In this document: piece by piece, positions 2,933-45,599 of the stretch
How positions within the stretch are numbered: the stretch's first letter is position 1
Layout: each line of letters begins with the position of its first letter
Assembly (NCBI GenBank): GCA_008690995.1
Contig: VRMN01000001.1
Location: 124,001-188,000 of the forward strand
Direction: 5' to 3'
From: Porphyridium purpureum
Taxonomy: Eukaryota
DNA length: 64,000 nt
Position numbers and translations under genes: made by a program
The notes under the pieces: model-generated
What the model saw: the letters and a program-made list of their open reading frames with translations, nothing else
Told to the model about the DNA's origin: nothing
Databases searched by the model: none

Positions 2933-3826
2933 TGTTGGTACCGATGTACTTGTCTGCCGGAGGTAGGCGCTCCTGTGCGCGAGCGGGGAAATTTAGTTAT
3001 GGCGAGTTTGCGGCTTTTTGGGTGTAAAAGCGTGGTCTGGCGAGCGACCCGGCGGCAGCGTGACGGCAAATGGAGGAGGCCCCGGATTCAGGGAGTGAAA
3101 AGCGTAACTTTGCACTGTCAAGTATGAAGTTTTTGGTTTACTTCAGCGAACATTTCAGCAGTGAAAGAAGTGTTAACATAGTGGACTGCCGCAGCAATGT
3201 ACCGTGCGATACAGTGTACACCAATCGGGCGGGAGCATAGCTCAAGCAGTAGAGGAATACGTCCTCCTCGATGGCCAATGGAGTGGTGCGGCGATCGAGC
3301 TCACGCGAACGTGCTGTCCGTGGGCGTGTGAGGGATGTGGCAGTGCCGCAGTAACTAACAAATACAGCTTTATCGGTAGTCGATGAGCACGATCCAAGAA
3401 AACACTCCTTACCCGAAAGAGTGGGTCAGTGAGACCGTCCGCGCTCTCCGCCCGCTTATCGTCGCGGCGCGGTCCTCTACCCAAACTGTACACAACCACC
3501 AGGTGTACACCTAGTATGCGCAACACAAGCACGTAATGGCAGTACGAGATTGGGAAGCGGGGTTGGCGAATTCAGGACCGAAGGCGGTAGTCGAGCGACA
3601 TTCAGGATAGTGGCGGCCAATATGGTCTTTGACTTGAAGGCGAAGTAGAGAATGTAGAGCAGCACGGAAACTGCGATTCCTTTAGGATCTAGCTTAAAGG
3701 GAAACTCTCTTCCGTGGTGTGATAAAAAAGGGTGCTATTGTAAACAACAGAGTCTCTCATTTATTGGGCCTATTTGGTCAGTTGGAAGTGCACGTGGGTG
3801 CACGTGATCTCATACGCCCTTCTAAT
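2933..3826 (+). repeat. 5' LTR of the degenerate element, interrupted by a solo LTR of another family
   Basis: It ends immediately before the PBS-like motif. 3538-3826 is clearly similar to 11944-12265 (shared ACAGAGTCTCTCATTTATTGGGC..ATTTGGTCAGTTGGAAGTGCAC). The left boundary is approximate. Confidence 0.6.
3248..3525 (-). mobile_element. Solo LTR of the self-priming Copia family (28137-33995)
   Basis: The reverse complement aligns end-to-end with the 278-bp LTR at 28137-28414, with substitutions. Flanked by 5-bp TSD CAAGC (3243-3247, 3526-3530). Termini TGTTG...CTACT. Confidence 0.95.
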
Positions 3827-20308: not shown

Positions 20309-23300
20309 CTACGTCCGTTCGAGGCTCCACCGATTCAATGCGGTCATTTCAAACAGAATCTCAGACTCGAAATCAGACTCACGCACACGTGCAGACATGT
20401 ACGGGTCCTCATGTAAGCGCTGCAGCATCCCAGCCAGTGTGTACATGGCAACGGCATCCTCCTCCCCTGCGCTATGATCCTGTCCCTTTGCACGCTCTGG
20501 TTCCGGCCCTGTGCCACTGCTTGCAGCGTCACTGCCACCCAGCTCAAACGCGCGCACCCAAGGTGCGCGAGCGGCATCTTCACCAAGCTCTGGACCGAGT
20601 GCAATGCGGGTAACCAACGGCATGATGCCTTGAGCATTATCTGCGGGTGATCCCGGATCAGACGCCACGCTGGTGCTGCCAGGCGCCTTGTCGATCAGGA
20701 AAAAGCACAGCTCATAATTAAAATCGTGCGAGCATAGCGCTCGCGCAAGACGGAGGAAACGGAGCGCGGCGATCGACTCGATGTACGATCGCTGCGGCGC
20801 TTCCAAAATGCGGAATAGCTCGCTTACGATAGACGCCTTGATGGGGGAAAATGCGACACTGGAGCTGCGAATTAGTAGCACACGCGCGCAGAGCAATGCA
20901 GCCTGTGTAATCCGAGCATGCCCGATCCTGAACAAGTCACGCAGTCGCTCCAACACGAAAGGCGTCTGCTCGTCAAAGCCACGGGACCCATGCTGGTTTC
21001 CTGCAAAATAGAGCACGTACACCATACGACACACCGTCTTGACCACCGCGCTCAAATCCAGGTCAGAGCTCCCCAGCATTAGTGCCTTTCCGATTGACGA
21101 CCCAATGGCACTGCTCACCGCACCCAGCGAGACTGTGGTGGCCGTGCCAGATCGGCCGCCTGCCACAATCATACTTCGCTCCCCGGACGCCTGACTCTGA
21201 TCTCGAGTCGAGCTGTTTGTACTGCTGCTACTCCCACCACCACTTGTGGCGCTGGAGCCCAGCCCGTTCGGCATGGACGCGGCAATCACACTGAGCGACG
21301 CTCGCTCGACAGCAACGACTTGGGAAATCAGTCTGCCCACGTGCGTCTGCAATGCGCGGTGCTTGCTCAAAGCCACAAGAAGCGCCGTGTCTTCTAGAAG
21401 ACCGAATACCTCTCGCCGTGCCAGTTTCGCACTCCAGTCCTTGCGGCTGAGTATGGTTATCAAATCCATGGCGTAAGCAACAGCGGAGACGCACACCGAA
21501 ACCGAACTTGGCTCCACCGCTGAAAGCAATCCTCTCGTGCCCGTTTTGATGCGGCTGGCACAAACCGAAAGAAGCGACTGGAGCATAGAGATCGCCGACA
21601 CACGATCTTCCTGCTGCGCAACGTCGAGCAACTCCACCGCGTGTGCCCGCGCAACGGCCAATGCCATGACACCAAAGTGGAGCGTGAGCTGCTGCCGGTC
21701 GGGCGTTTCGTGCGCCTCGCCGCTCTCACTTGGAGTTCGGAGTGCGCGAATGCTTTGCGCAGCATTTTCAAGATCGGTCGAGCTGATGGTCATATTGCCG
21801 GCGATCAACGAACTGCAAGACGCCAATGCCTGTGTCGCTAGCGCCGCAATTTCCTTTTTCATTCTACGGTCCGAGCCGTCCGCTGCACTACCTGAACAGC
21901 GCACTATGCTAGAAAGCAACCGCACGGTGCAGATCTGGGCACCCGCGTTCGTGGACTCAGAGATGACCGCTCGGCAGCATGTTAGCAGCACTGGCACCGC
22001 AGAACTGATCTGCTGTTGGAACAAAGATTCGTTCGAAGATGCCGTTGATGATGACGCACAGAAATCAATAACCTGCGTGAGAAGAGATAGGGTACCAATT
22101 AACGCATTCGCGGCTTGACAAGTCCCGATGGCTAGGTCCATAAAAGCAAGATCGTCTGCTGCGGGCACCGAGCCAGCAGCACTGAGGTACGCATACTTGG
22201 CGGTAGCTGCCGCTTGTATCACAGACGAAGTAGGTTGCGACATTGAAGCGGAGCCTGCACCAGGATTGAATCTGCCCCCCGACCCAGTCGCCGTTCCCGG
22301 TTCCTCTGCAAACGTTTGCATTCGTGGCAGAAATCCCAAAGCACCATTCAGATTAAGCTCCGAGGCACGCATGAACTCCGAACCGTGATCACCTTTGCGA
22401 CGGCGTGCTGGGCTGCGAGGTGAATTCTCCACGTTTTGAAACAAGCTCATGAATCCGTCTAGGCACGACTTGCTCAGCGTTCGCATCCACTTGCTCGCCT
22501 CACGCACTTCCTGAGCGCCTTCATTGACGCTCATGCAAACGTGCACAATCATTGCGAGCGCGTGCAGCGGGTGGGCGATGACCGCTGCACCCACCGATCC
22601 ACTTGCAAGCACAGGAGAGCCGGGAAATCTTCCGCATTTGAGCACAATATCCAGCACATATTCCTGAATGGTTTGGTACTTGATCATCCGCGCCCTGGCG
22701 CTCTGCGCTTCGTCTACGCTGATGCAGCCATTCATAATTCCTAGCGGAAGTGTCAGGAAGCGCGCATGCACGCGCCACCAGACATGCACCAGCACGAACA
22801 TGAGATCAGACGGGTACAAGACGCCAAATGAATTCAGTGTGGACAAAATGAATGCCCGGCCGCGATGACCCTGCGCTGCAAGCTGAGCCCGCGGTGCGAC
22901 CTGCTGAAGTCGCTGACGATGATCTCGCAGCTGCGGGTGCTGTACATTTTGGTTCCCGTGCTCATCCAGCATCCAGAAAAACGCATCATACATGCTGCTG
23001 ACGCTTGCGACTCTCGCGGGAATCCATGCATGCGCAAAACACTCCACGAGTCGCGGCATGAGGGCGAAAACGGTACAATGCACATCGCGCGCAATCTGCT
23101 TGCTGATGGCGCCCGTCATCTGCCCCAACAGGCGATCGCTATGGCCACTGGAGCTGCTGGAAATAAACGTGTCGCGCATCAAACCTTCGATGTACTCAAA
23201 AGCTGAACGACCAGCGCTGCCAGAATAGTTAGGTTGTCCCGCCGCTGCGCTTGACGCAGATTTATCTTGATGCGTCAGCAAAGTTGCTCCATTCTCTGCT

Positions 23301-26300
23301 TGCAGGGACAGCCGGCCACTGAGAGACGACAAAGTAGCGTTCGTGGACATGGCGCCGATTATAACCTGACGGACGGAGCGCAGAATCGTAAGGTTGCTGC
23401 ATGTTGATCCCTGCACGGGCCGTTCGACACTCTCCATCAACTCGCCGCCGAGGATGTGCAATGATCCAAACACCAACTGCGGAAGAAATGTGACATCGAA
23501 TACGTCGCTGAAGCCCACGCCCACACCGTGATTCCATGAGCACATGCGTATCGTCAGCAAGCAGAACTGCGTCCAACGGGATACAAAAGCATCACCGTAC
23601 GCTCCGTCCGCATCATGTCTAAACACACATGCATTCCGTAAGCCATGCCACACGCATGGAGCAAGGGTCGCGGCAAATGAATCTGATGCCTGGGACTGGG
23701 GTGGGAGTTCGGGCGTCAAGTGACCGCCACCTGTGCTTCCCACTTGGCTCGCATGACTCTCGCCATCATCACCAGCCGCTGAAGGGCCACGTTCATGGGC
23801 GCGAGCAAGCGAAGACACCCAAAAGAACGATTCCAGCGCGTCCAACAAATGCTTCTGGAGCATTTTGTCGTCAAGCGCGATTGAATAAAACAGATTCTGA
23901 AGGAAAGCTTGTGCGATGTGTGCGCGTACTTGCTGAGCACTGGCAACGCTGGAAGACCATGACGACACCAGCGACGACGATGCTGCGGAAAATAGCTTAG
24001 CAAGGAGCTCGGCGGCCATAATCGCGAGCGCGCGGAGCTTGGACTTGCTGGGCCGTAGCATAATATCACTCGGGTCATCCCTTTCCTTTTCATCCGCGCT
24101 TTGCGCGACCGAGGTCTGAGCCATCACGGCGAGCTGGATGAGCACGTAATGGCCAATGCACTCAAATGCTACAATCAATATTGCGTGAAGATACGTTCCG
24201 CCTCCATCACCATCTTCCACAAAGTTCGTTAGCGCCAACTTTCTCAGCTTGAGCTCCTGAACGCGCAAGTCCTCATGAATGTGAGACTGAGCACCCCCTG
24301 CTCCGGAAGAGCGCGTTGATGACTTTTTAAAATTGTCATACAGCGCGGAGAGCGACATGGAGACCTCGACTGAGCACTTTGCACGCAAAAGCGATTCCAT
24401 TGTGGACGTCGGCTCGAAGAGGAGCTCCATCAATCCATCCATCCGATCTCCACCGCCTCTGCCAGTGGTGGTCAATGGGCTCGCGTTCATGCCATTCATA
24501 TTCGAAGACTGCGAAAGAATCGGTGACAACGACCCGGCGGCTGCTTGTCCAAACCCATCTGCCGTGCCAAAAAGCGCTGCATTGGCTGGAGGTCCTGTCG
24601 CGGCACCGACTGCATGCAGAGAGACGAGGTCGCGGATACGCTGAATGGCGTACTGGCTACGCGCCACGTCAAAGGACTCGGAGGCAAACGCACTAGTAAG
24701 TTCAGGCTGCTCTGAGTATACACGTGCTGGCAAAAGCAGCAGGCGGAACAGCGGGTCTAGCAATGTGCCTGGAGCAAAGCGCATCATTCGGGCGAGCCAT
24801 GTTTGCACAAATGCGCACACGGACAGATTCTCCTTATTGCAGATCTGCAGACCATTGCTACTGCCGGATCCTGAACTCGCTGCGTCAAGAAACAGACATA
24901 GCAGCGCGTCAGATGTGGCCACGGACATCAAAAGGTGATGCTCAATACTCAGATCCCATAATGAAGCGAGGCACTGCAAGTTCTGCAAACGCGCAGAAGC
25001 AAGCGCAGGCTTCGCATTCGCAGAATCTACACTGAATAATCTCTTGCCACTACTTGCATCAGCAAGAATACCGTCCGCCACAAGTGCATGGGCAGCGTCT
25101 GTAAAGCTGCGTTCCAAGCCAAGCCAAAGCTCAGCGCACGCTGCGTTCGCTGATGCGCGCGAGGGATGCAGCAGCCGCCATGCCCGGCATATGCATGGAC
25201 GAATCAAGCCCATCTCAATCGATTCTGGCGCCTCTGATGCGTCAAAGGCAATCAGCAGGCCGAGTCTTTGCATCACACGTTGGTCCATGTCAACGCGAGA
25301 AGCATCGCCCGACAGATAAAGAATGTTTTCCGATTGATCCAATTCAAAGCCCGAACGCATGCCAATTAACTTTCCCATGCGAATGCAGAACGCATCACTC
25401 ACGCTGTGCTTCTGAAGCGCCGGCGCGCTGCCATCCATGAGCGCAAATAGCTCAGAAAGTGGTTCCTTCTTGACTTTCTCGCGTCTTTCTCGCGGTACGT
25501 ATCGCGACACGTCAATGAGAGTCCTTAGGCCAGCAAACACAATGCCAAGCGACGAAGAGACAACACAGCGGTTTGCGCAGATGAGTACAAGACGTACGAG
25601 TGTCATCAGCGCGAATGAAGAGTCGTCTAGAGCGCTAGCGTCCTTGACGGTGCCTAATGAGGCTGTTGCACGCAAAAGCAGGCCGCTGATGATACTGGTC
25701 CCTGCAAGCGCGACCGAAACCTGCAAGTCAGACGCCTGTCCAGACAAGCCCAAATCATCGCTTGCTCCGCGTCCCACTCCTGCATCGGCAATTGTCTGAT
25801 CCTGCGTTTGATGCGAATGCGATTCAGCTTCAAAAGACTCGCTGGCCTGGTTGAGTGGGCGCATATCGCTGCAGACGCGCTCCACACGCACGCGCATGTA
25901 GAGCCAGATCCAGAACACGGTTGCTATTTGTACTGCGCTCCGCATGAATAATGTCGTGCACCGTTTGTTTTCAGCGCGGCTCAAAGCGCTCAGTAACAGA
26001 ATCGTCACTTGCATCCATCCATGCAAAGCGACATCCGTATGCGTGTCGAGTGCTCTCGTCAAATCAATGCCTTCTTGACTATCAGCAGAACCATCATCGC
26101 GCATCAGCACACGCTCGTAAAATCCTGCACAAGTCGCGAGCAAGCTCGGAATCCAGTCAAGCTGAGCCTCGCGCGAGTTCAGAGGAAGTGTCTGCAGTGC
26201 GAGCAGGACAACCGAGAAGAAAGAACTCTGACTTTCGGCGAGAGTCTGCGTGTGAAGCATGTACTTGCACAAGTCTGCATAAAATGCGTCGTTGCCGATG

Positions 26301-28021
26301 CAGCCAATGACTTCCGCGTTGGATCGCTCAATCAGCGCGACAAGTTTTTGCGCTTGCTCGATCGAGAGAGGCTGATGCACTGACGCTAGACCGTAATTCT
26401 GGGCCTGCCGCGATGTGTACTCGTCCATCTTCACGTTTGGTTCTCGGACACGAGAGAAAGCACCGATGAGCGGGCTTGAAAGTTGCATGAGACGCATGCC
26501 AATTGTTGGGCGGAGACTGGTGAATATTTCTTCCCTGTCCAGCAAGCCTAGCAGCACTCGGTACGCCGAAAGTATGTGTCGCTTGAGCTTTGCGTACGCG
26601 CCTTGCTGTTGGTGCGTACCGTTGCTGCTCAAACTGTTCGCGCCACTGATCATCTGATGTTCCGAAGCAGCAGTTGCATCGAACGCGCCCATGTCGCCCT
26701 GCTGGTGATCGTCGTTGGAAGTGCTGAGCTCCTGCGCGAGCTGCAGCTTGGACCACATTTCGTCGATCACCGCCAGGCATCCCGCTCGGGCATTTTCCTC
26801 AAAGTACGACTGGCGTTGGGTGGAGTCGGTAGAATTACCGACAAGATAAGAGTAGACGCGCTTGGACAAGTTCAGTTCCCTTCGGATCAACACAAGGAGT
26901 ACGCTTTTCAACAGCCTGATCTTGCGCGTCGTACAAGTGCCATCCAGTCGTGCACGCGCCGCTTCCTCTCCTGCTTTCGATGTCAGGACCGCTGTGTCTG
27001 TACTCTCTGGTCCACGCCCAGGTCCAAATAGTGATGTGCTGCCAATGTTGAGCTCCGAGCATGTCAGGAGAAGGTCGAGCGCCGCGCGTTGCGTGAGCGC
27101 ACCTTGATCCTCCCCAAGAGCGACTGAGAGAGCTGCAGCGACTAGTTCTGGATTCGACACCAACGCATTCTTGCGTACCTGACCGTTCGGCGTGGCCGCG
27201 GCGCTGCTTAAACTTGCGTGATACGTGTTCGCCTCCACGAGTGACCTCAGATAATTGCACGCGGTAAGACGGAGCGAGCCCGGCGCTGTTAGGATGACGT
27301 GCCACAGGGATTCAGTAAACAACGCATCGTCACTCAGAACGTCACGAAACTGCGCAAGCAGGTCGGAAGCCGCGAGGAAACACTCAGAACTCTCGTCGGT
27401 ATCCTCCAGCGCGGGCAGAAGCGCCTGTATAAAACCCGATGCAACCCCGCGCAACGGTTGCGCCCCCAGTGGTAGCAAATACTGTTCGTACAGAGCGATC
27501 AGAGGACGCTTGAGCGGCATGGCCCCGTACGAGAGCAATGGAAACAAGCCCGCGCAGTACTTGGGCAGGTCTTTCGCGAGCCTGCGCGGCCCAATCCGGC
27601 CGAACACGAGATGATACGTCTCGAGCGCCTTGAGATGCACGCCCGATGGCAGCGACGGCGTCAGGCACTGAGCAAGGCGCTTTGCCAGCAAGTTTTTCTC
27701 AGGAATGTATCCATACTGTGCCGCACTTGTCCCGTTTTCCGCGTGATTGCTTGCGGCGGCCGTCACGTTGCCTGCCTGATTCTGACTCGTTTCGTCCGCA
27801 GCTTCAACACTGCTGCTGGAGGCCGCAGGAGCAGGTGCCGCAGACGCGTGCTTGAGCAGGATGCGATTCACGCGCTGCAGGTCGTGAATCAAGTCGGCCC
27901 AGTCCTGGGCACGGTCAAACGCATGCAGCGCGTTCAGCAGCTCGGAACGCAGCAACGCATACTTTCCTCCGCGCACGCGGCCGCCGCGCTCCAGGACGCG
28001 CTCCTCCTCAGACGACTCCAT
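20309..28021 (-). CDS. DOP1: Dopey family protein (DOP1/PAD-1), endosome-Golgi trafficking
   Basis: 2570-aa intronless ORF. Dopey N-terminal signature 'FDRAQDWADLI...KRLAQCLTPSLPSGVHLKALETY...GLFPLL'. Confidence 0.93.
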   Translation of the reverse strand: MESSEEERVLERGGRVRGGKYALLRSELLNALHAFDRAQDWADLIHDLQRVNRILLKHASAAPAPAASSSSVEAADETSQNQAGNVTAAASNHAENGTSAAQYGYIPEKNLLAKRLAQCLTPSLPSGVHLKALETYHLVFGRIGPRRLAKDLPKYCAGLFPLLSYGAMPLKRPLIALYEQYLLPLGAQPLRGVASGFIQALLPALEDTDESSECFLAASDLLAQFRDVLSDDALFTESLWHVILTAPGSLRLTACNYLRSLVEANTYHASLSSAAATPNGQVRKNALVSNPELVAAALSVALGEDQGALTQRAALDLLLTCSELNIGSTSLFGPGRGPESTDTAVLTSKAGEEAARARLDGTCTTRKIRLLKSVLLVLIRRELNLSKRVYSYLVGNSTDSTQRQSYFEENARAGCLAVIDEMWSKLQLAQELSTSNDDHQQGDMGAFDATAASEHQMISGANSLSSNGTHQQQGAYAKLKRHILSAYRVLLGLLDREEIFTSLRPTIGMRLMQLSSPLIGAFSRVREPNVKMDEYTSRQAQNYGLASVHQPLSIEQAQKLVALIERSNAEVIGCIGNDAFYADLCKYMLHTQTLAESQSSFFSVVLLALQTLPLNSREAQLDWIPSLLATCAGFYERVLMRDDGSADSQEGIDLTRALDTHTDVALHGWMQVTILLLSALSRAENKRCTTLFMRSAVQIATVFWIWLYMRVRVERVCSDMRPLNQASESFEAESHSHQTQDQTIADAGVGRGASDDLGLSGQASDLQVSVALAGTSIISGLLLRATASLGTVKDASALDDSSFALMTLVRLVLICANRCVVSSSLGIVFAGLRTLIDVSRYVPRERREKVKKEPLSELFALMDGSAPALQKHSVSDAFCIRMGKLIGMRSGFELDQSENILYLSGDASRVDMDQRVMQRLGLLIAFDASEAPESIEMGLIRPCICRAWRLLHPSRASANAACAELWLGLERSFTDAAHALVADGILADASSGKRLFSVDSANAKPALASARLQNLQCLASLWDLSIEHHLLMSVATSDALLCLFLDAASSGSGSSNGLQICNKENLSVCAFVQTWLARMMRFAPGTLLDPLFRLLLLPARVYSEQPELTSAFASESFDVARSQYAIQRIRDLVSLHAVGAATGPPANAALFGTADGFGQAAAGSLSPILSQSSNMNGMNASPLTTTGRGGGDRMDGLMELLFEPTSTMESLLRAKCSVEVSMSLSALYDNFKKSSTRSSGAGGAQSHIHEDLRVQELKLRKLALTNFVEDGDGGGTYLHAILIVAFECIGHYVLIQLAVMAQTSVAQSADEKERDDPSDIMLRPSKSKLRALAIMAAELLAKLFSAASSSLVSSWSSSVASAQQVRAHIAQAFLQNLFYSIALDDKMLQKHLLDALESFFWVSSLARAHERGPSAAGDDGESHASQVGSTGGGHLTPELPPQSQASDSFAATLAPCVWHGLRNACVFRHDADGAYGDAFVSRWTQFCLLTIRMCSWNHGVGVGFSDVFDVTFLPQLVFGSLHILGGELMESVERPVQGSTCSNLTILRSVRQVIIGAMSTNATLSSLSGRLSLQAENGATLLTHQDKSASSAAAGQPNYSGSAGRSAFEYIEGLMRDTFISSSSSGHSDRLLGQMTGAISKQIARDVHCTVFALMPRLVECFAHAWIPARVASVSSMYDAFFWMLDEHGNQNVQHPQLRDHRQRLQQVAPRAQLAAQGHRGRAFILSTLNSFGVLYPSDLMFVLVHVWWRVHARFLTLPLGIMNGCISVDEAQSARARMIKYQTIQEYVLDIVLKCGRFPGSPVLASGSVGAAVIAHPLHALAMIVHVCMSVNEGAQEVREASKWMRTLSKSCLDGFMSLFQNVENSPRSPARRRKGDHGSEFMRASELNLNGALGFLPRMQTFAEEPGTATGSGGRFNPGAGSASMSQPTSSVIQAAATAKYAYLSAAGSVPAADDLAFMDLAIGTCQAANALIGTLSLLTQVIDFCASSSTASSNESLFQQQISSAVPVLLTCCRAVISESTNAGAQICTVRLLSSIVRCSGSAADGSDRRMKKEIAALATQALASCSSLIAGNMTISSTDLENAAQSIRALRTPSESGEAHETPDRQQLTLHFGVMALAVARAHAVELLDVAQQEDRVSAISMLQSLLSVCASRIKTGTRGLLSAVEPSSVSVCVSAVAYAMDLITILSRKDWSAKLARREVFGLLEDTALLVALSKHRALQTHVGRLISQVVAVERASLSVIAASMPNGLGSSATSGGGSSSSTNSSTRDQSQASGERSMIVAGGRSGTATTVSLGAVSSAIGSSIGKALMLGSSDLDLSAVVKTVCRMVYVLYFAGNQHGSRGFDEQTPFVLERLRDLFRIGHARITQAALLCARVLLIRSSSVAFSPIKASIVSELFRILEAPQRSYIESIAALRFLRLARALCSHDFNYELCFFLIDKAPGSTSVASDPGSPADNAQGIMPLVTRIALGPELGEDAARAPWVRAFELGGSDAASSGTGPEPERAKGQDHSAGEEDAVAMYTLAGMLQRLHEDPYMSARVRESDFESEILFEMTALNRWSLERT

Positions 28022-28136
28022 GAATCACCGCGCGCGGCGCCCGACGCGACCCTGCGCGCGCGCGCGTATTCTGTGACCTGCCGCCGGGTCCACAAGGTCC
28101 CAGCGGTCGGCGAATCGCTCAATAGGCGTGTGGCAC

Positions 28137-28414
28137 TGTAGTGTACACTGGGTGTACACCTCGTGGCTGTGTACAGTATGGGTAGAGGAGCGCGCCGCGA
28201 TTGTAAGCGGCCGGAGAGCGTGGACGGTCTCACTAGCCCGCTCTTTCGGGTAAGGAGTGTTTTCTTGGAGCGTGCTCGTCGACTACCAGTAAAGCTGTGT
28301 TTGTTGGTTACTGCGGCACTGCCACACCCTTCACGCGCACACGAACAGCGCGTACGCGTGAGCTCGATCGCCGCACCACTCCGTTGGCCATCGAGGAGGA
28401 CGTATTCCTCTACT
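28137..28414 (+). repeat. 5' LTR (TGTAG...CTACT)
   Basis: Direct repeat of 33718-33995. Confidence 0.97.
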
Positions 28415-28429
28415 CACGCTCCAAGAAAA
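28415..28429 (+). promoter_or_regulatory. Primer-binding site complementary to the element's own LTR (28260-28274)
   Basis: CACGCTCCAAGAAAA abuts the LTR end and is the exact reverse complement of TTTTCTTGGAGCGTG. It has no TGG start (complement of tRNA CCA). Confidence 0.85.
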
Positions 28430-28462
28430 TCTGAGAGTCTGCGACACCGGTGACAAACGAGA

Positions 28463-29572
28463 ATGTCACGTGTCGGACAAAGCGGCGCAGGCCGTTCGCC
28501 GCACCCACGCGAAGCCGGTCTTGTAGAGACACTTCCGCTGCTCACTTACGACAGCACGCGTGTGGTGCCGGCCGCGGTGGTAGTTTGGGTCGAGGAGCTC
28601 GGCAACTACTGCAAGAAGGAATACGGCGCTATCGGCACAGCGTTTGCGATAGAGCGCCAAGGACGCGTGTACCCCACCTTGCCGACGATCCCGCAAGCAA
28701 CCCCAGGGCTCGGGGAGGCGGGACGGGAGGATTGGTACAGCGCCACCGTCGCCAAGGAAGAGCTCAAGCTGGCGCTCGCGGCGCGCTCGGACGCGATACG
28801 CAAGGACAAGGAAACTCGCGTGCGCGTGTTTGGACTCATCATGGGCCAACTGAGCCGCGCATCTAAGGAAGCGCTGGCCGTAAAGCCCGGCTGGAGTCAA
28901 CTCGTACGAGAATCGGACGATCCGCTGCAGCTTCTCGAGCGCGTGATCGAGGCGCACCTGACCCGTGGCTACGACGACCCGCTGCGTAACCAGCAGTATG
29001 CTCGCATGTCGTACGATCAACTGAGAGTTGGAGCAGACGAATCACTTGTTTCGTTCAAGACGCGCTTCAAGGCAGCGGTGATGGCCCTTGAAGCCGTGGG
29101 CGAACCAGTGCCGTCTTCCGAGCGCTGCGCGGCTGACTTTATCCTAAAGCTTGAAGGTACGCGCTGGGACGAAGCCGTACGCAAGTGCAACAACGAGCAC
29201 CGACGGTTCGACACGGTCGACCAGGCAATGTCTTTCATGGCGCAGTTCGCGTACGCGAAACAACCGGTACAGGGTCGCACTTGGCGGACGGACACCGAAC
29301 ACCCAGAAGACGAGGACACAGATGATGTGGAGCTCGCAGCAGCACCACGCGTACGCGAATGCTACAACTGCGGCGCGGATGATCATCTCCTTCGCGACTG
29401 CCACGCGCGACCGCTGGACAGCGGAATGGCCGATAGGATGCGCGCGGCGAAGGAGAGGCAGGCGCGCATGGCGAGGCGCGACACGCGCGGACGCGGGCCG
29501 GTGCTGGCCGGGGCGACGGAGCAACAGCTGCGGGCCGCACTTGACGCGTTGAAAAGGAACGCCGATGCATGA
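28463..29572 (+). CDS. gag: Copia Gag with CCHC zinc knuckle
   Basis: 369 aa; 'CYNCGADDHLLRDC' knuckle; ends in TGA in frame with pol. Confidence 0.93.
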   Translation: MSRVGQSGAGRSPHPREAGLVETLPLLTYDSTRVVPAAVVVWVEELGNYCKKEYGAIGTAFAIERQGRVYPTLPTIPQATPGLGEAGREDWYSATVAKEELKLALAARSDAIRKDKETRVRVFGLIMGQLSRASKEALAVKPGWSQLVRESDDPLQLLERVIEAHLTRGYDDPLRNQQYARMSYDQLRVGADESLVSFKTRFKAAVMALEAVGEPVPSSERCAADFILKLEGTRWDEAVRKCNNEHRRFDTVDQAMSFMAQFAYAKQPVQGRTWRTDTEHPEDEDTDDVELAAAPRVRECYNCGADDHLLRDCHARPLDSGMADRMRAAKERQARMARRDTRGRGPVLAGATEQQLRAALDALKRNADA

Positions 29573-32500
29573 CGGTGTGCGACGTGGCCCACGGGCTTCG
29601 GTGACGAGATACCTTTGGGTCTCGACACCTGCTCGGGTGTTCACGTCATGAAGGATAAGGGGTTAGTCCATCGGGTAAAGAAAATTGACGAGTATTTGCT
29701 GCTGTCCGGAATTGACGCGCGGGCGAGCGAGCTGGCCATCGGGCACGGCGGTGAGACGGCCTTCGGCATGGCGTACGTCAACGAGAACCTTGCAGGCAAC
29801 GTGCTGTCTATGACCAAGCTGGTCGCGGAAGGGCATGATGTACGCTTCGACGCGGATGAGAACCGCTTCCGCGTACGCGTGCCGAACTCCAAGCGCTGGC
29901 TGGTCTTCGCGCCCGATGCACACGGAATGTACACTGCGATGATACGGCGTGCAGATCTCGTGCACACGACGGGCCCAGCATACAAGAAGGCAGCCACGAA
30001 TAAGGACAACCGGAACAGCTGCCGGGCCGGTCCATCGTCTGCCAAGGCTTGGACCTCAAGCACAATCACGACGGTCGCCAGCAACCTTGCCCGATGCACG
30101 GTACGCGAGGTTGAACGCGCACGCGCCGCTCGCTCTCTGCAGGCGAGGCTGGGATTCCCATCCTTTGGTGTGCTGAAGCGCATGCTTCAGCGCGGGGACA
30201 TAAGCAACTGTGACGTCACGTCGGCGGACCTCGAGCGTGCGAATGCAATCTGGGGCACTCCACTGCCGTGTGTGAAGGGAAAGACAACGGGACACGCGAC
30301 ACCGAGGCTGTCTGAAACGGTCACCACTGGTCCCAAAGCGCGCCAGGTGATGCACTCCGACCTGATGTTCATCTCGAAGGTGCCTTTCCTCGTGTCGGTC
30401 TTGAAACCGAGTCAATACATCCTGGCCACCGAGCTGAAGCGGAAGGACGCGCCTTCGGTGCGCGCGGCGGTGCAGCGGCGGTTGAACGAGGCCCGCGGGC
30501 ATGGAGTGCAGATACCTGAGATTCGGTTCGACCGTGAAAGCGCAGTCCTGTCGCTCTGGATCGAGTTGATGGAGGCCGGCATCCTGCCCGAGCTAACCGC
30601 GGCAGACGAGGTGGTGCCCGCCGCTGAGCGAGCGATTCGCCTTCTAAAGGAAAGGGTCCGCACATTGTCGTACGACCTGCCGTACACCATGCCATTATGC
30701 ATGCTGCCGGGAGCCGTGGAGTTCTCTCGACAGAGACTGAACATGGTGACGAGCGAGGCCTCCGACGCGGGCGAACCGGCGCACGCCATCTACTTTGGTC
30801 GTAAAGTAGACGCGAAGACGGACCTACGTGCTCCATTCGGGGCGTATGTCCAGGCACATACAGCGTCCGTGGACAGCACGATGAGGCCCAGAACGTTGGG
30901 CTGCCTCACCCTGCATTCCGCCGAGAATGCTGCGGGAAGCTGGGTGCTCATGAATCTGAACACACTGAAGCCCATCGTCAGACAGGTGTGGACAGAGCTC
31001 CCGGTACCGGACCACCTGATCACGTACGTAAATGCGCTCCCAACCGTGGCAGGCATCGACGATGGCGATCAGGACCTCGGCCGCACGGAGGTGGAACTCT
31101 CGCAGGAGGAAGACAAAGAGACGGCGGAGGTCGAGGCGGCGCTGAAAAACGGCGGGCCGGTCGACGAGCCAGCGGCGGAGGGGCACACGTATCTGGACCA
31201 GCCAGAAGACGCGGTACTGCGTGAACAGGCGCAGACTCCGACACACGCCGACACCGATCACCCCGCACCGGCGGGCGCCGACGTGCTGAGTAAGGATGAG
31301 TCACCGTCCACTCCCACGCAGTTGCGCATGGAAGAGATGCGACGTGCAGCGGATTCACTCTTCGAGGCGGGGCGAGCAATGACGCCAACGACTGCGGAAG
31401 CGACCGGCGAGGGTCTGCCAAGCACGGACGCAGTACTGCCGGAGCCGCTTATCGTGGCAGAATCTGTGGAAACCCATGTGCCCGAGGAAGAGGCGTCGAC
31501 TGATCCACCCGCTACTGCCGCACGGCCGCACGGCGACGCCACAATCACCAGTCCGGACGCTTCAGACGGCGAAGCGGCCTTGACCCCCTCGGTCGCCGAG
31601 GTGACAATGGAACAGGCCAAAGCGCGGGTGGAAGCAATTGAAGAGAAGCTGCGAGCGCTGGAGGAACGTGAGGCGCGTCTGCTGAGTCAGATGACCACGG
31701 AGCCATCGTACGCGGACGCCGTCCGAAATGCGGTACCGCGCACGAGCGAAGCCGAGCATGCCCGCGCCGTCAGCTCTCCGCGTCGGACACGGAAGCGGAA
31801 AGCAGAAGGGACATTCCCGGACGTCGAGCGCGAAAAGAATGAGCGGCTATCGCGCCGCGAGAAGGAACGCCTGCGTGTACGGCGCGCGCCGGAGGTCGTG
31901 GTCGCCCTGAAACGAGAGGCGGAGGACTTGCTATCTTCTGCGATGCCGGGAAAGCGCAGACACAAAACGCTGAGGATCGGCGTACGCCAGGCGATACGCC
32001 AATACGGTATGGAAGGACTCAAGGCGATTGTCGCTGAGCTGTTGCAGCTGTCCAAGCACGGTCTGGACGTGCTGGAGCCGGTCCACGTGCACACGCTCAC
32101 GAAGAAACAACGAGACGGGATCATACCGTCGTTCATGTTCGTGAAGGAGAAGCACGATGCTTCAGGCGCCTTGGAGAAAATCAAAGCACGAATGGTGGCC
32201 GGCGGGAACGAGCAAGATCGATCGGAGTACTCCGACTGTTCGTCCCCCACGGTGGCGACCGAGGCTATTTTCTTACTGGCAGCCGAGGCAGCGAGAAGCG
32301 GTGCCGCAGTCGCCACGATTGATTTCCCCGGGGCATTTCTCAACGCAAGCATCCCCGACAGCGACCCACACACGTACGTGAGGATCAACAGAAACCTGAC
32401 CGGGCTGCTCGCCGCCGTAGATAAGCGCATGAAGCAGTTCGTCAAGAACGGTGTTCTGGTCTGCAGGTTGAAGCGCCCGTTGTATGGATGCATCGATGCG

Positions 32501-33631
32501 TCCAAGCGTTGGTATGACCACCTCTGCGAAATGTTGAGCGAGCTCGGATTCGAACAGAATGCTTACGACGCTTGTGTCTTGCGGAAAGTCTCCCGTACGG
32601 GCGAGCCTTCCGTCACAGCGCTTGTGCACGTGGACGACGTGAAGCTGATCGCAGAAAGCGAGCAAGCGATTGATGAAGTGGTGGCGCGCGTACGCGAAAG
32701 GTTTCCGTCGCTGCAGGAGCACCGAGGGCGCACACACAGCTACCTGGGGATGGAGTTTGACTATACCTCCCCGGGGGTGGTGCGCATCGGGATGGGCGGG
32801 TTTGTAGACTCTTTACTGCGAGAGAATGACGTACGCGGTACCGCAGACACGCCCGCTCAAGCCGGGTTGTTCGTGGATGACGAGTCGCAGTTACTGACGT
32901 CGCACGACAAGGAGGCGTTCCACAGCGCCACCGCAAAGGTACTATACCTCGCGAAGCGCATACGCCCGGACCTGCTCACTGCGGTAGCGTTTCTGGCTAC
33001 GCGAGTACAGGCCCCGGGCGAGAATGACCGCGCGAAGCTGACCCGCCTGCTGAGGTACCTCAACAAGACGCGAGACATGAGGCTGGAGCTGGGCACGGGT
33101 TGGGTTGCAGACGAGCGCGAGCCCGATTGCGCGAGCCATGCGGAGCCGCACGTAGAGTGCTATGTCGACGCCTCATTCGCGACACATGCGAACATGAGGA
33201 GCCACACGGGTGGCGTTGTGAGCCTGGGCCGCGGCGCGGCGTACGCCACCAGTGTCAAGCAGAAGCTCAACACAAAGAGCTCCACCGAAGCGGAACTGGT
33301 GGGCGTGAGCGATGTGATCGGGCAAGCGATATGGACGCGGAACTTCCTCGAGGCGCAGGGCATCCGCACAGCTGGCGTACGCCTACACCAGGACAACGAG
33401 GCGACCATGTCTCTCCTTGCACACGGTCGGGCGACCTCGCGTAGGTCGCGCCACATCGCGATCAAACACTTCTTCACGCACGATCTGCTGAAGAGGCGAG
33501 TCGCGACGATGGTACATTGTAGCACCGAGGTCATGATCGCGGACCTGCTGACCAAACCGCTGCAGGGAAAGAGGTTCGCACACCTCCGTGATATGATCCT
33601 CGGGCGTGCGCCGACAGCGCAAGAACCGTAG
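29573..33631 (+). CDS. pol: Copia Pol (protease-integrase-RT-RNase H), in frame with gag after one TGA
   Basis: PR 'GLDTCSGVHV'; INT 'MHSDLMF..IRFDRES..AERAIR'; RT 'KIKARMVAGG..IDFPGAFL..PLYG..HVDD'; RH 'YVDASFA..KSSTEAELV..QDN..IADLLTKPL'. Open from 29573 to the stop at 33631. Confidence 0.95.
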   Translation, partial: RCATWPTGFGDEIPLGLDTCSGVHVMKDKGLVHRVKKIDEYLLLSGIDARASELAIGHGGETAFGMAYVNENLAGNVLSMTKLVAEGHDVRFDADENRFRVRVPNSKRWLVFAPDAHGMYTAMIRRADLVHTTGPAYKKAATNKDNRNSCRAGPSSAKAWTSSTITTVASNLARCTVREVERARAARSLQARLGFPSFGVLKRMLQRGDISNCDVTSADLERANAIWGTPLPCVKGKTTGHATPRLSETVTTGPKARQVMHSDLMFISKVPFLVSVLKPSQYILATELKRKDAPSVRAAVQRRLNEARGHGVQIPEIRFDRESAVLSLWIELMEAGILPELTAADEVVPAAERAIRLLKERVRTLSYDLPYTMPLCMLPGAVEFSRQRLNMVTSEASDAGEPAHAIYFGRKVDAKTDLRAPFGAYVQAHTASVDSTMRPRTLGCLTLHSAENAAGSWVLMNLNTLKPIVRQVWTELPVPDHLITYVNALPTVAGIDDGDQDLGRTEVELSQEEDKETAEVEAALKNGGPVDEPAAEGHTYLDQPEDAVLREQAQTPTHADTDHPAPAGADVLSKDESPSTPTQLRMEEMRRAADSLFEAGRAMTPTTAEATGEGLPSTDAVLPEPLIVAESVETHVPEEEASTDPPATAARPHGDATITSPDASDGEAALTPSVAEVTMEQAKARVEAIEEKLRALEEREARLLSQMTTEPSYADAVRNAVPRTSEAEHARAVSSPRRTRKRKAEGTFPDVEREKNERLSRREKERLRVRRAPEVVVALKREAEDLLSSAMPGKRRHKTLRIGVRQAIRQYGMEGLKAIVAELLQLSKHGLDVLEPVHVHTLTKKQRDGIIPSFMFVKEKHDASGALEKIKARMVAGGNEQDRSEYSDCSSPTVATEAIFLLAAEAARSGAAVATIDFPGAFLNASIPDSDPHTYVRINRNLTGLLAAVDKRMKQFVKNGVLVCRLKRPLYGCIDASKRWYDHLCEMLSELGFEQNAYDACVLRKVSRTGEPSVTALVHVDDVKLIAESEQAIDEVVARVRERFPSLQEHRGRTHSYLGMEFDYTSPGVVRIGMGGFVDSLLRENDVRGTADTPAQAGLFVDDESQLLTSHDKEAFHSATAKVLYLAKRIRPDLLTAVAFLATRVQAPGENDRAKLTRLLRYLNKTRDMRLELGTGWVADEREPDCASHAEPHVECYVDASFATHANMRSHTGGVVSLGRGAAYATSVKQKLNTKSSTEAELVGVSDVIGQAIWTRNFLEAQGIRTAGVRLHQDNEATMSLLAHGRATSRRSRHIAIKHFFTHDLLKRRVATMVHCSTEVMIADLLTKPLQGKRFAHLRDMILGRAPTAQEP

Positions 33632-33717
33632 GGCGTACGCATCGTCTCGTGTGACTCGCTTCGCCGTCGGGTGGCTTGTGTGGAGCGGGTGGTAGCTTCC
33701 ATCGCGGCGAAGGAGTG

Positions 33718-33995
33718 TGTAGTGTACACTGGGTGTACACCTCGTGGCTGTGTACAGTATGGGTAGAGGAGCGCGCCGCGATTGTAAGCGGCCGGAGAGC
33801 GTGGACGGTCTCACTAGCCCGCTCTTTCGGGTAAGGAGTGTTTTCTTGGAGCGTGCTCGTCGACTACCAGTAAAGCTGTGTTTGTTGGTTACTGCGGCAC
33901 TGCCACACCCTTCACGCGCACACGAACAGCGCGTACGCGTGAGCTCGATCGCCGCACCACTCCGTTGGCCATCGAGGAGGACGTATTCCTCTACT
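33718..33995 (+). repeat. 3' LTR
   Basis: Identical to 28137-28414; preceded by purine-rich GAAGGAGTG (putative PPT). Confidence 0.97.
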
Positions 33996-34210
33996 GGCAC
34001 TTTCGTCCTTGGTGTCCAGGTACAGCCGTCACACACAAGTAGAAGCGGGAGACGCAGAGAAGTTTATGGAAAGGAGCAAATGGACCTGGCCAGACGAGGC
34101 AGACCGACGTTTGATTTCGTCCACACCGCTCCGGCGGAAGCGCCGCACAGTGGGCTGAAACAAAAGGATACGTGCTTGTTCGCTGTCCCGCGTGACATGG
34201 GGCTCGCGTG

Positions 34211-39856: not shown

Positions 39857-39884
39857 CAATCTCAACCTTCCACCTCGCAATAAA

Positions 39885-40198
39885 CGTGGGAACGATGAGG
39901 TCCCGCTGAACCGCGGACTCCCGTGTTCACTTGGCCGGCGGTGCGGCATAAGTACGTTCTGTGGAGCGGCCGGGTCCCGGCCGGATAACTAGCGAAGATA
40001 AGAGACTCTTTAGCGTGGTGAGGTAAAGGTTCGTCGTTTATTCGGAGCGATAGGGAGCCGGCGCAGAATCGTCTGCGCGCCTCGAAGAGTCCGCCATATT
40101 AGTGGCCCACGTGTTGCACGTTTCGCCGTGCGCACCCGCACCCCTTTCGGGCGTAGCATCGATCTTTCTCGGCCGATCCCTTGGAGCACCTCTCCAAG
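39885..40198 (+). repeat. 5' LTR (CGTGG...CCAAG)
   Basis: Direct repeat of 45134-45447. Confidence 0.96.
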
Positions 40199-40213
40199 GG
40201 TTATGAGCCCAGC
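40199..40213 (+). promoter_or_regulatory. PBS complementary to the anticodon stem-loop of initiator tRNA-Met (half-tRNA primer)
   Basis: GGTTATGAGCCCAGC abuts the LTR. Its complement GCUGGGCUCAUAACC contains anticodon CAU, the same PBS type as Drosophila copia and yeast Ty5. Confidence 0.88.
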
Positions 40214-40495
40214 GGCGGAAGCCGTCTGCGCGTATATTGATCACATGCTTAACTTCGTGTTCGCTTGATCGGTCGTGGGTTTATTTGGTTTGTATCATCT
40301 TTGCTTCGGGGAGTTGGCTCGTGTGGAACGTCGGGTGTCAACTTCGGACGCGGTCGTTGTGTCTCGCTTGACATCGACCCCAACCGCGATACGGAGCTCG
40401 TGAGTGATAGAATCAAGAAGCGAAACAGTCCATCGCCTGGACCATCACGAGATCGTCGCGCCAGGAGGCGGACCTCGTGATCATAACTGTCGGTC

Positions 40496-43400
40496 ATGGA
40501 CGACCGTGAGCAGGAGCAGTCACGTCTGCGCGCAATTATGGCAGCGAGACAGCAATCGTTGGAACCACAACCTCTGCAGCAGGGTGGAGGTACGCAAGGC
40601 AATGCACAGGCTGGTCCATCGCCGACCGAGTTTGACATGTTGATGGCCAGGGTGAGAGCGGAATTATCCGCCGACTTACGCATGGCACAGCAGCGCATTG
40701 AGGGTCTGGAGAGCGATTTGGCGCACGAAAGAGCAGCGCGATCGGCTTTGGCGTCCGCGGGCGCGGGGCAGGTGGTTCATCAGCGGGGAAAGTTGCTTGA
40801 ACCTGCACGTATGCCGGCGTATGACGGGAAAAGAGACCTAGTAAAGATCCTGACGTGGATTTCGGCGGCTCGCGACCGAGTGATTGAGCCGTACAAGGAC
40901 GAAGTCGCGGCGGTTGGCGAATCTTGGGACGACGCAGCCGAAAAGAGGGTCGTTCGAAACCTCGCTGGGTTCCTGACGGATGACGCGCAGTTGTGGTGGA
41001 TTCGCCTGAGGGAGCAGCCGTTCACGGTTGAAGCATTTCTAGCCGCGCTCGAGATGCGGTTCGCCCCGGTGAACCCAGGCGCTCGGGCTAGAGATGAGCT
41101 GTTCGCGTTGGAGCAGAATAGCACGAGCGTGGAAGAGTATACAAATACTTTCTCCTCGCTCTGTCTGCGCATTGAAGACGCCACAGAGTCTGAATTGTTC
41201 GACAAGTACAAGCGAGGGCTTGACAAGGACATTAGGGTGCAAACCGAACTTAAGGGCACATCCAGCTTGGAAGAAGTTATCCGCGTAGCTTCGGAGATCG
41301 ATGCCATCATGCACCCGGAACGCGCCCGGACTGCCAAGAAAGGGCAGACGCCCTACGGGGACGGACCGGCTCCCATGGAGCTGGGCTCCGCTGAGCGCGG
41401 CGGGAAAAGCGTAGGTGCTGGCAGCGGCGGTAAAAGAAAGAGTGGTCGAAAGAAGTGGAAGGCTCGGGACAGCGGGAGGAGAGATGGTCTGAAAAAGGAT
41501 CAATGCGCCAACTGCAAACGCATAGGGCATTGGAAAAAGGATTGCCCGGAGCTCGCCGCACAGGCGGCTGAGCTGGAACTACTCACTGCGAGCACCAGAC
41601 CAAAAGTCGAGAGGCTTGTGAAGAGAAAAATGTGGGTGAATGGTCACCAAGTCGACGCAGTGTTTGATACAGGCGCGACGAACACATATGCTTCGCTCGC
41701 TTTCTGTGAGAAAATTGGTGTGGCGGTGGACCGGCGCGCTGCCGTGGGAGGAGTTCGCTTGGCGGATGGTACCATGTGCAGGCCCGAAGGGACCGCGCGC
41801 CTGACGTTGAGAATGCATGGGGCTCGGGATGCAAAGTTGTCCGCGGTGGTACACAGAGCGCGTCACGAGCTCATAGTGGGCCTGGACTGGCTGAGGGCGC
41901 AGAAGGCGCATTTGTCCGTGGGAGGCATGGAACTACTCAGCACGGATGCGGAGAAAATCAATGAGAAGCCCAATGAGCCAATTAGAGCCACAGAGCCGGT
42001 GAGGGTTCTGGACCACGACCTTTTGCATATGCCTGCGAAGGAAGATTGTGGGATTTGTGCCCTGGGCAAAATACAGAGAGTGCGCGCGGTGCGTCGCAAA
42101 GAGAGTGACTCCAATGCAATCATCGACTTTAATGAGGCCGTCTCCATTGATCTCGTGGACCCCTCCTCGGTTGGTGTGGATGGGACGAGATGGGTTCTGG
42201 TACACAAAGACATCGGAACGGGCTGGGTCTCTGTGACGGGCCTGAGGAATAAACTCGCCGACACGGCCTCGTTCGCGTTTCGAGAGATACAGCGGGGCCG
42301 CGGTTGGCCTCGGCTGGTGAAAAGCGATGGCGGCGGAGAATTTGGAGGTGTTTTCGAAGACATGCTCCGAGACCACCTGGTTGCCCACGAAAAGGGCATA
42401 GCGAGGCGTTCAAACACGCATGCCAGTCAAGAGAGGCTTCACAGGGACATGAATGCGACGGTGAGGGCGCTTCTAATCCAGTCCGGGTTGCCATCGTCAT
42501 GGTTCTGCTTCGCGGCTCGGTATTGGGCGGATGCTCGAAATCTCGTTTGGGCTGGGCGCGGAGGCGGTACCACCGCGTACGAGAAACGATTCAATACTAA
42601 ATGGAAATTGGAGCTGCCTGCGTTTGGCCGGGGCGTCGTAGTTTACGACGAGGCTTCCGACAAGAATGAACCGAAGGGCTCTGTCGCAATCGTGGTCGGT
42701 TTTCGGATACCAGAATCAGCAGTCATCAAACAACGACTGAATTGCCTGGTGATCCCTGTTTCAGATATGAGGCCGGCAGCGGCGCGATGGGTACAAGAAT
42801 GGAAACTGCTCAAAGAAAAGTATCCCGTCGTAAGAAAACAGCTCAGGCCCGTTGAAGAAGAATTCGCCCGCCCGCCGGACCCTAAACCAGTTGCTGACGA
42901 CGAGGGGCAGCAGTACCCTGGAAGCGGTAGGAATGATAAGAGCGACGAGACCGGCGAGACCTCGGAAACCGAGCCGCCGGCCGACTCAAGAGAGAAAAGT
43001 AATGAGATAGAAACAGGTTTCAAAGAATGCGTACGTGCAAGCGAAACAGAAGCGCCTCCGATGGGGCCGCTCGCGACAGTAGACGGTCGATCGCGAAAGG
43101 GCTCGTGGAGCAGCGAGCAAATTGCGGCTATTTCGGGCGGCTTCACACGACTGGGTCCAAAGTGGTCGCAAATTATCAAAGAGAGTAAGGCCGCCTTGGC
43201 TGGTAAAACAGCGAAAGACGTGCGCTCGAAAGCGCAGGCGCTCGGATTGCTCGGCTCACAAGCCCAAGGTCTTGGCGAACACAGGCGCGGGAGGAGCGGG
43301 GCCTTGCGGCGCGCGAGGGTGAAGTTCGTAGAAGTTGCGGAAAAAGGGGTGTCGGCGCGGGCAGAGAAGGTCAGCGTGCCTCTTGCCGGAGCGACGGCCT

Positions 43401-45088: not shown

Positions 45089-45133
45089 ACCTCGAGACAG
45101 AGTGGAGTCCGGTGATTTGCGCGTGAGGAGGCG

Positions 45134-45447
45134 CGTGGGAACGATGAGGTCCCGCTGAACCGCGGACTCCCGTGTTCACTTGGCCGGCGGTGCGGCATAA
45201 GTACGTTCTGTGGAGCGGCCGGGTCCCGGCCGGATAACTAGCGAAGATAAGAGACTCTTTAGCGTGGTGAGGTAAAGGTTCGTCGTTTATTCGGAGCGAT
45301 AGGGAGCCGGCGCAGAATCGTCTGCGCGCCTCGAAGAGTCCGCCATATTAGTGGCCCACGTGTTGCACGTTTCGCCGTGCGCACCCGCACCCCTTTCGGG
45401 CGTAGCATCGATCTTTCTCGGCCGATCCCTTGGAGCACCTCTCCAAG
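45134..45447 (+). repeat. 3' LTR
   Basis: Identical to 39885-40198; preceded by short purine tract GAGGAGG. Confidence 0.96.
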
Positions 45448-45599
45448 ATAAACACTGTACTCGGTGTACTCGGTGTACTTAGTGTACAGTTGCGCCCGAG
45501 CGTTTTGTGGAAGGCCGACTTGGTGGTGAGTGTGGGAACGGCCAGTGAGTTGGGAAAAGTGGGAGTGTTGGACGCGCGAGTGCGATGCGTGGTGGAGCG

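Follow-up and report, generated by a model that had tools for sequence, protein, structure and literature searches.

An intact Ty1/Copia retrotransposon in the 64-kb stretch of Porphyridium purpureum DNA analysed here (the window) likely primes minus-strand DNA synthesis with the 5' end of its own transcript, in a Tf1-like manner, rather than with a host tRNA; on the strength of sequence comparisons, we give this reading a probability of roughly 80%. The 15 nt directly after the 5' LTR of the element (28415-28429; CACGCTCCAAGAAAA) are the exact reverse complement of a segment within that LTR (28260-28274; TTTTCTTGGAGCGTG), with 15/15 nt matching and an offset of 0 from the LTR end. A sequence-only reading of this DNA had claimed the match, and direct comparison confirms it. 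The broader proposal of that reading, a Tf1-like self-primed primer-binding site in a Copia element, is supported by the RVT_2 match and integrase order in pol, by the complementary arms of related elements and by the lack of TGG at the site.

Element anatomy and complementarity at the LTR end

The element (28137-33995) lies on the forward strand and is bounded by two 278-nt LTRs of the form TGTAG...CTACT (28137-28414 and 33718-33995), which are direct repeats with 100% identity. The 5-nt target-site duplication GGCAC is common to their outer flanks (28132-28136 and 33996-34000). Because the LTRs are identical and GGCAC stands on both sides, the first post-LTR base is fixed at 28415. G28274 therefore lies opposite C28415, bearing out the earlier claim that the 3' G of the LTR segment pairs with the base abutting the LTR. 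The 5' arm, or self-primer segment (28260-28274), has an equivalent in relatives and a copy in the 3' LTR at 33841-33855; the 3' arm, or predicted primer-binding site (28415-28429), abuts the LTR end and carries no TGG. Downstream follow a gag ORF of 369 aa (28463-29572), with a weak CCHC zinc knuckle and tblastn matches to the gag regions of relatives, then pol (29573-33631), and finally the polypurine tract GGCGAAGGAGTG (33706-33717) immediately 5' of the 3' LTR.

The class of the element follows from pol. RVT_2 (PF07727) matches aa 839-1074 of the ORF from 29615 with E = 3.9e-18 (66.4 bits; cut-off 31.6), and in a profile combining pol with 24 relatives, positions 221-665, which precede the reverse transcriptase, match the Ty1 integrase chain 7z0h_W (E = 5.6e-11). 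The domain search of the element proteins gave no match to Pfam rve in pol and none to a chromodomain. Integrase before reverse transcriptase (PR-IN-RT-RH), together with RVT_2, makes this a Ty1/Copia element. A single TGA followed by C (29570-29572) divides gag from pol, which share one frame, and several relatives (L070, L019, L045, L053 and L078) likewise have two adjoining same-frame ORFs split by one stop. This recurrence suggests programmed stop-codon readthrough rather than decay.

A chance origin of the 15-nt complementarity is excluded. Judged by 100 shuffles of the window, a 15-nt pattern of this kind with at most two mismatches is expected 0.16 times window-wide; no 15-nt inverted repeat arose in 1000 shuffles of the LTR plus leader (326 nt); and the calculated odds that a 15-mer anchored at the LTR end matches anywhere in the LTR are ~264 x 4^-15 = 2.5e-7. 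The two arms are separated by a spacer of 140 nt. In the predicted fold of RNA 28260-28470 (-78.6 kcal/mol, z = -3.45, with 0/200 shuffles equally stable), the 15-nt duplex closes a multibranch structure. The arrangement also falls within the self-primer criterion given in a published survey (PMC6317226), namely at least 10 bp of complementarity to the 5' LTR beginning 0-5 bp after it.

The sequence-only reading had further proposed that an adjacent 8-nt stem, in which CTCGTCGA (28275-28282) pairs with TCGAGGAG (28391-28398), extends this structure. The pairing is real, with one mismatch, and by calculation ~0.05 8-mers with at most one mismatch are expected in the span of the stem. As an extension of the structure, we dropped it as unsupported: the stem is missing from both the minimum-energy and the centroid folds of 28260-28470, it would strand 16 unpaired nt (28399-28414) on one side and is not coaxial with the main duplex, and position 28398 within it varies (G>C) among LTR reads.

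Two small features lie just upstream of the 5' arm. The 8-nt sequence AAGGAGTG both ends the polypurine tract (33710-33717) and directly precedes the primer segment in the LTR (28252-28259), a double occurrence that is absent from the relatives whose regions were inspected; it could mark a second RNase H-resistant site or be a product of chance. The T-run with which the primer segment opens is immediately preceded by a small hairpin at 28239-28259 (8 pairs, G-U allowed). This hairpin was the sole match of a scan for bacterial-type promoters and terminators, and its designation as a terminator is probably meaningless in a eukaryote.

Complementary arms in related elements

A pol-alignment scan provided 78 metagenome-contig loci as relatives, with 34-48% pol identity in the best segment, and found none in the viral contig collection. 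Only three sources among the 120 matches listed are named organisms, all of them Porphyridium, and no plant name occurs among the matches listed. One pol match labelled Porphyridium purpureum is 100% identical over 29% of the query, and a second Copia family with the same label is 41% identical over 96% of the query. In many of the relatives' contigs the unit is collapsed or circularly permuted, and one LTR separates the stop codon of pol from the start codon of gag. Using the ORF map, we delimited the pre-gag region, from the pol stop or contig start to gag, in 50 of the 78 loci; it is absent from the other 28.

These 50 regions were searched for inverted repeats with arms of at least 8 nt and spacers of 40-440 nt, each locus being compared with 200 shuffles. 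Such a repeat is present in 45 loci. It reaches p <= 0.01 against the shuffles in 33 of the 50 and p = 0.015-0.04 in five more, while in seven the best repeat is no better than the shuffles. No repeat of at least 8 nt was found in the remaining five, among them L069, which is clipped by the contig end. Across the 41 loci tallied for arm length and position (L070, L078 and L003, with best repeats of 9 nt, being left out), the arms have a median of 14 nt and the spacers a median of 127 nt (85-205). As a control, coding windows of the same length from 30 loci gave a median repeat of 8 nt and a maximum of 9, with repeats of at least 12 nt in none; the non-coding regions of these 30 loci contain one in 25.

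The regions inspected have a shared plan. A polypurine tract of the form (A/G)GG(A/G)GTG leads into an LTR start TGTTG, followed by TCA or TC and the 5' arm; further downstream, CAAC(A), the complement of the TGTTG start, is followed at once by the 3' arm, after which a short leader precedes the gag ATG. In 34 of 41 loci (background 3.8%) the 3' arm opens exactly at the end of ACA, or between its C and final A; as collapse or permutation of the contigs obscures them, LTR ends in most relatives were placed by motif (polypurine tract, TGTTG and CAACA). Similarly, the 5' arm starts directly after CA, or between C and A, in 31 of 41 loci (background 11.7%); we take this CA motif to be initiator-like. 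The window element departs from the clade pattern, with AGTG instead of CA before its 5' arm and an LTR end of CTACT instead of CAACA.

Boundaries defined by repeats are few, comprising both LTR ends of the window element, L063 and the LTR start of L068, and those of other loci are motif-based. The repeat of L063 has its end at 127/5401, followed by 14 nt that perfectly complement a site 147 nt upstream; in L068 the repeat fixes the TGTTG start. Direct repeats proved a poor guide to LTR ends in the metagenome contigs, as most are terminal k-mer overlaps of 55-127 nt or coding overlaps of permuted units, and we rejected them. A complement test anchored on BLAST-derived ends recovered the arm of the window element and complements of 14 nt in L063 and 9 nt in L067, but was blank in L006, L068, L070, L036 and L002, where those ends are wrong. 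Part of the L006 LTR recurs in inverted orientation at the 3' end of its contig (6178-6265), most likely through a fold-back error in assembly, and the LTR end of this contig is therefore unusable.

Taken together, the comparison supports the view that most relatives examined keep an LTR-internal complement to the bases at the LTR end. Complementarity across relatives was a check that the sequence-only reading had suggested, and it favours that reading: 33 of the 50 loci have perfect arms of 12-19 nt, and one compensatory change is seen. It is in L064/L068, one of just two locus pairs that align as DNA, where T-to-C in the 5' arm goes with A-to-G in the 3' arm. The 41 loci contain 39 distinct 3'-arm sequences. 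As these distinct arms match the LTR of their own element, the primer site tracks each element's LTR and not a conserved host RNA. Across the relatives, the predicted Tf1-type self-priming geometry is kept by covariation.

Proposed priming mechanism and alternative explanations

We propose the following model for initiation of reverse transcription. Transcription would begin with R, at 28260 or immediately upstream, making 28260-28274 the first 15 nt of the transcript. These 15 nt would fold back onto 28415-28429, or pair with the same site in trans on a co-packaged RNA, and the RNase H of the element would cleave after G28274. The freed 3'-OH, opposite the first post-LTR base, would then be extended through U5 and the remainder of R, and the strong-stop DNA would transfer to the 3' R. 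The 15 nt would be recopied at the 3' R, and the LTR would thus be regenerated.

The mature CCA end of a tRNA is ruled out as the primer of the window element, as the site opens with CAC and not TGG. No TGG occurs within 8 nt of the LTR end in any of the 41 tallied relatives. In addition, ARAGORN found no tRNA genes within the 64-kb window, and no Rfam families were found in the LTR or leader.

The alternative that survives best, although we consider it unlikely, is that the long-range duplex is a structural RNA element, acting in cyclisation, dimerisation, packaging or control of gag translation, and that another primer initiates synthesis. The closeness of the 3' arm to gag fits such a role, as the arm lies 33 nt before the gag ATG in the window element and 1-60 nt before it in the examples inspected and in many of the loci tabulated, and so does the stable multibranch fold that the duplex is predicted to close. 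However, nothing requires a packaging or translation signal to start at the first post-LTR base, which is the defining position of a minus-strand primer site and where the arm is found in the window element, in L063 and, as judged by the ACA motif with its 3.8% background, in 34 of 41 relatives. Moreover, no other primer-binding site is visible in these elements, with TGG in 0/41.

We regard as very improbable a second alternative, in which a host RNA (a half-tRNA, tRNA fragment or small RNA) primes at 28415-28429 and the LTR copy is a mimic or a masking regulator. Half-tRNA priming is known in copia and Ty5, and AGCGTGCT in the LTR is, we presume, common to the D-arm region of initiator tRNA. 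Precedent within Copia also comes from the Osser and Bianca lineages, for which half-tRNA priming is described in PMC6317226. Set against these points, tRNAs are conserved, yet the 41 relatives have 39 distinct sites, each matching its own LTR; the CAC start excludes a mature CCA end, and the ARAGORN and Rfam searches gave nothing in the window and in the LTR or leader, respectively. Finally, inverted repeats can bind dimeric factors, but a DNA-level role as a protein-binding or recombination site is the most remote of the alternatives, along with a functionless by-product, because complementarity alone is conserved while the sequences change, with one compensatory change, a signature of RNA/DNA pairing and not of protein recognition, and because the shuffles exclude chance.

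For transcription, which the self-priming model would have begin at the 5' arm, we aligned three raw RNA-seq runs (X21, X22 and X23) and one DNA run (X1) to the element. In X22, reads of one orientation cover the interior at a depth of 7-15 while those of the other are absent (depth 0), and the element is thus transcribed in sense. The sequence-only reading had predicted a start at about 28260. In keeping with this prediction, coverage has a boundary at about 28250-28285: depth in X23 is flat at 4 up to 28250 and then takes values of 4.4, 6.2, 9.8 and 11 across 28251-28286, and depth in X21, in the opposite orientation to X23, climbs from 2 to 8 across 28233-28277. Against it, the RNA runs have low depth on the element and no position with at least five read starts, and the rise in X21 and X23 at ~28250-28277 comprises a handful of reads in both orientations. 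A start near 28260 therefore agrees with the RNA reads but is not demonstrated by them. No joints or poly(A) loose ends are listed among the reads on the element. In X22, sense depth drops from 48 to 20 across 28224-28286, possibly because transcripts end in the 3' LTR. Among the 78 related loci, one transcript-like contig starts at the 5' arm, and only partially (L004, 9 nt), three other matches being unrelated 9-mers.

The DNA contigs of X1 break at 28256/28285 with a depth step from 296 to 380, so a partial LTR copy elsewhere could produce an RNA coverage boundary. Contig depth in X1 is ~77 for the primer-binding site and internal part and 296-380 for the LTR, from which we infer roughly one full-length copy and a few solo LTRs. 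Five LTR variants in the RNA reads (28221 T>C, 28225 C>T, 28274 G>A, 28365 C>A and 28398 G>C), each in ~1/5 to 1/2 of these reads and absent from the X1 DNA contigs, probably come from other LTR copies or strain differences. One of them concerns the predicted 3' end of the primer, as A stands at 28274 in about one-third of the LTR reads from the RNA runs and would mismatch C28415. These reads are not linkable to any primer-binding site and may be of solo-LTR origin.

LTR coverage in X21 and X23 is in both orientations. Many RNA reads also pass from the LTR into the 3' flank of this copy (28414/33995 junction, 33996 onward; X21, 13 reads; X23, 17 reads), and others enter three or more further flanks; LTR copies are therefore read through into neighbouring DNA.

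Known priming systems, wider implications and other LTR elements in the window

Levin in 1995/1996 and Lin and Levin in 1997 are said to have established self-primed reverse transcription experimentally in Schizosaccharomyces pombe Tf1. This mode of priming is used by the Tf1/Tf2, Tf1/sushi and Tcn1 groups, which are Ty3/Gypsy chromoviruses. The Tf1 primer is the first 11 nt of its own mRNA, and both the transcription start and the RNase H cut are established there. Like Tf1, the P. purpureum element has no tRNA-type primer-binding site that we could see, post-LTR bases complementary to an LTR segment and the same fold-back geometry. Unlike Tf1, which is Ty3/Gypsy, it is Ty1/Copia (RVT_2, with integrase before reverse transcriptase), its duplex is 15 nt (9-19 nt in relatives) instead of 11 nt, and its transcription start and RNase H cut are predictions. 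As a Copia element, with integrase before reverse transcriptase and no chromodomain match, it falls outside the Tf1/sushi group. To our knowledge, experimental evidence for self-priming comes only from Tf1-like Gypsy elements, and self-priming in Copia has been predicted in just one plant lineage.

Self-priming in Copia is already predicted in print for that lineage, plant TAR, and is not new here. Neumann et al. 2019 predict it for 89% of 203 plant TAR Copia elements and cite earlier self-priming proposals for Houba and Osr-1, both TAR members (PMC6317226). Our element resembles plant TAR elements in superfamily, predicted mechanism, criterion, 5-bp target-site duplication and length of ~5-6 kb (PMC6317226). 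In contrast, TAR is a land-plant lineage, whereas the element is red-algal and its relatives were recovered from metagenomes, aquatic and other.

Other Copia elements depart from standard tRNA priming in different ways. Fungal GalEa, like our element, is a Copia element without a tRNA primer-binding site and with a self-complementary feature at that position; according to Donnart et al. 2017 (PMC5445492), this feature is a Conserved Hairpin Site, for which the authors found no LTR complement. GalEa has a local 9-bp palindrome and a hairpin spanning the LTR end (PMC5445492), whereas CACGCTCCAAGAAAA is non-palindromic and has its pairing partner inside the LTR, 140 nt upstream. The Osser, Bryco and Bianca lineages, for which half-tRNA priming is described in PMC6317226, share with our element an unconventional primer-binding site without a TGG start. 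Their site is conserved within each lineage through the host tRNA; here, by contrast, the site is element-specific and matches the element's own LTR. In the open-access literature (subscription papers and Repbase reports being outside our scope) we found no description of a self-primer site in red-algal, diatom or other protist Copia elements, and primer sites are not a topic of the diatom CoDi paper (PMC2806351).

The element is likely part of a large undescribed algal/protist clade of self-priming LTR retrotransposons, and the comparison of arms suggests that tRNA-independent priming is a lineage-wide strategy outside plants and fungi. A further proposition, that this is a large and old algal/protist Copia clade, including dozens of aquatic metagenome families, that does without tRNA primers and is separate from TAR, is one we put forward tentatively and with some doubt. 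If it were true, self-priming would have had repeated origins across both LTR superfamilies, or else would represent the ancestral start mode, a possibility on which Benachenhou et al. 2013 speculated (PMC3601003). There are also practical consequences. First, annotation tools that demand a tRNA-type primer-binding site would miss or misclassify such elements. Second, they would go unseen by host defences in which tRNA-fragment small RNAs are directed against the primer-binding site (reviewed in PMC7472051). Finally, the mechanism could be tested on this copy, which is young and transcribed and resides in an alga that can be cultured.

Elsewhere in the window, an older solo LTR of the same family lies on the reverse strand at 3248-3525, with 247/278 positions identical, a TGTTG start and the target-site duplication GCTTG at 3243-3247 and 3526-3530. 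Its primer segment (3388-3402) has one change, G>T, and no primer-binding site follows the solo LTR. The window holds no further copies of the family beyond this one. Upstream of the full-length element, an intron-free ORF of 2570 aa with a Dopey N-terminal domain runs on the reverse strand (20309-28021). Its start codon is 115 nt from the 5' LTR, and the element therefore occupies the upstream region of that gene.

A second intact LTR element occupies 39885-45447, with 314-nt LTRs, delimited by eye, at 39885-40198 and 45134-45447 and the target-site duplication ATAAA at 39880-39884 and 45448-45452. It has a single ORF of 1530 aa with gag, an aspartyl protease and a weak RVT_2 match near the C-terminus. 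The sequence directly after its LTR, GGTTATGAGCCCAGCGG (40199-40215), presumably resembles the complement of the anticodon stem-loop of initiator tRNA-Met; this would be a putative half-tRNA primer site, contrasting with the arrangement in the element at 28137-33995. A 9-bp hairpin (CCCTTGGAG / CTCCAAGGG) spans the LTR end of this second element.
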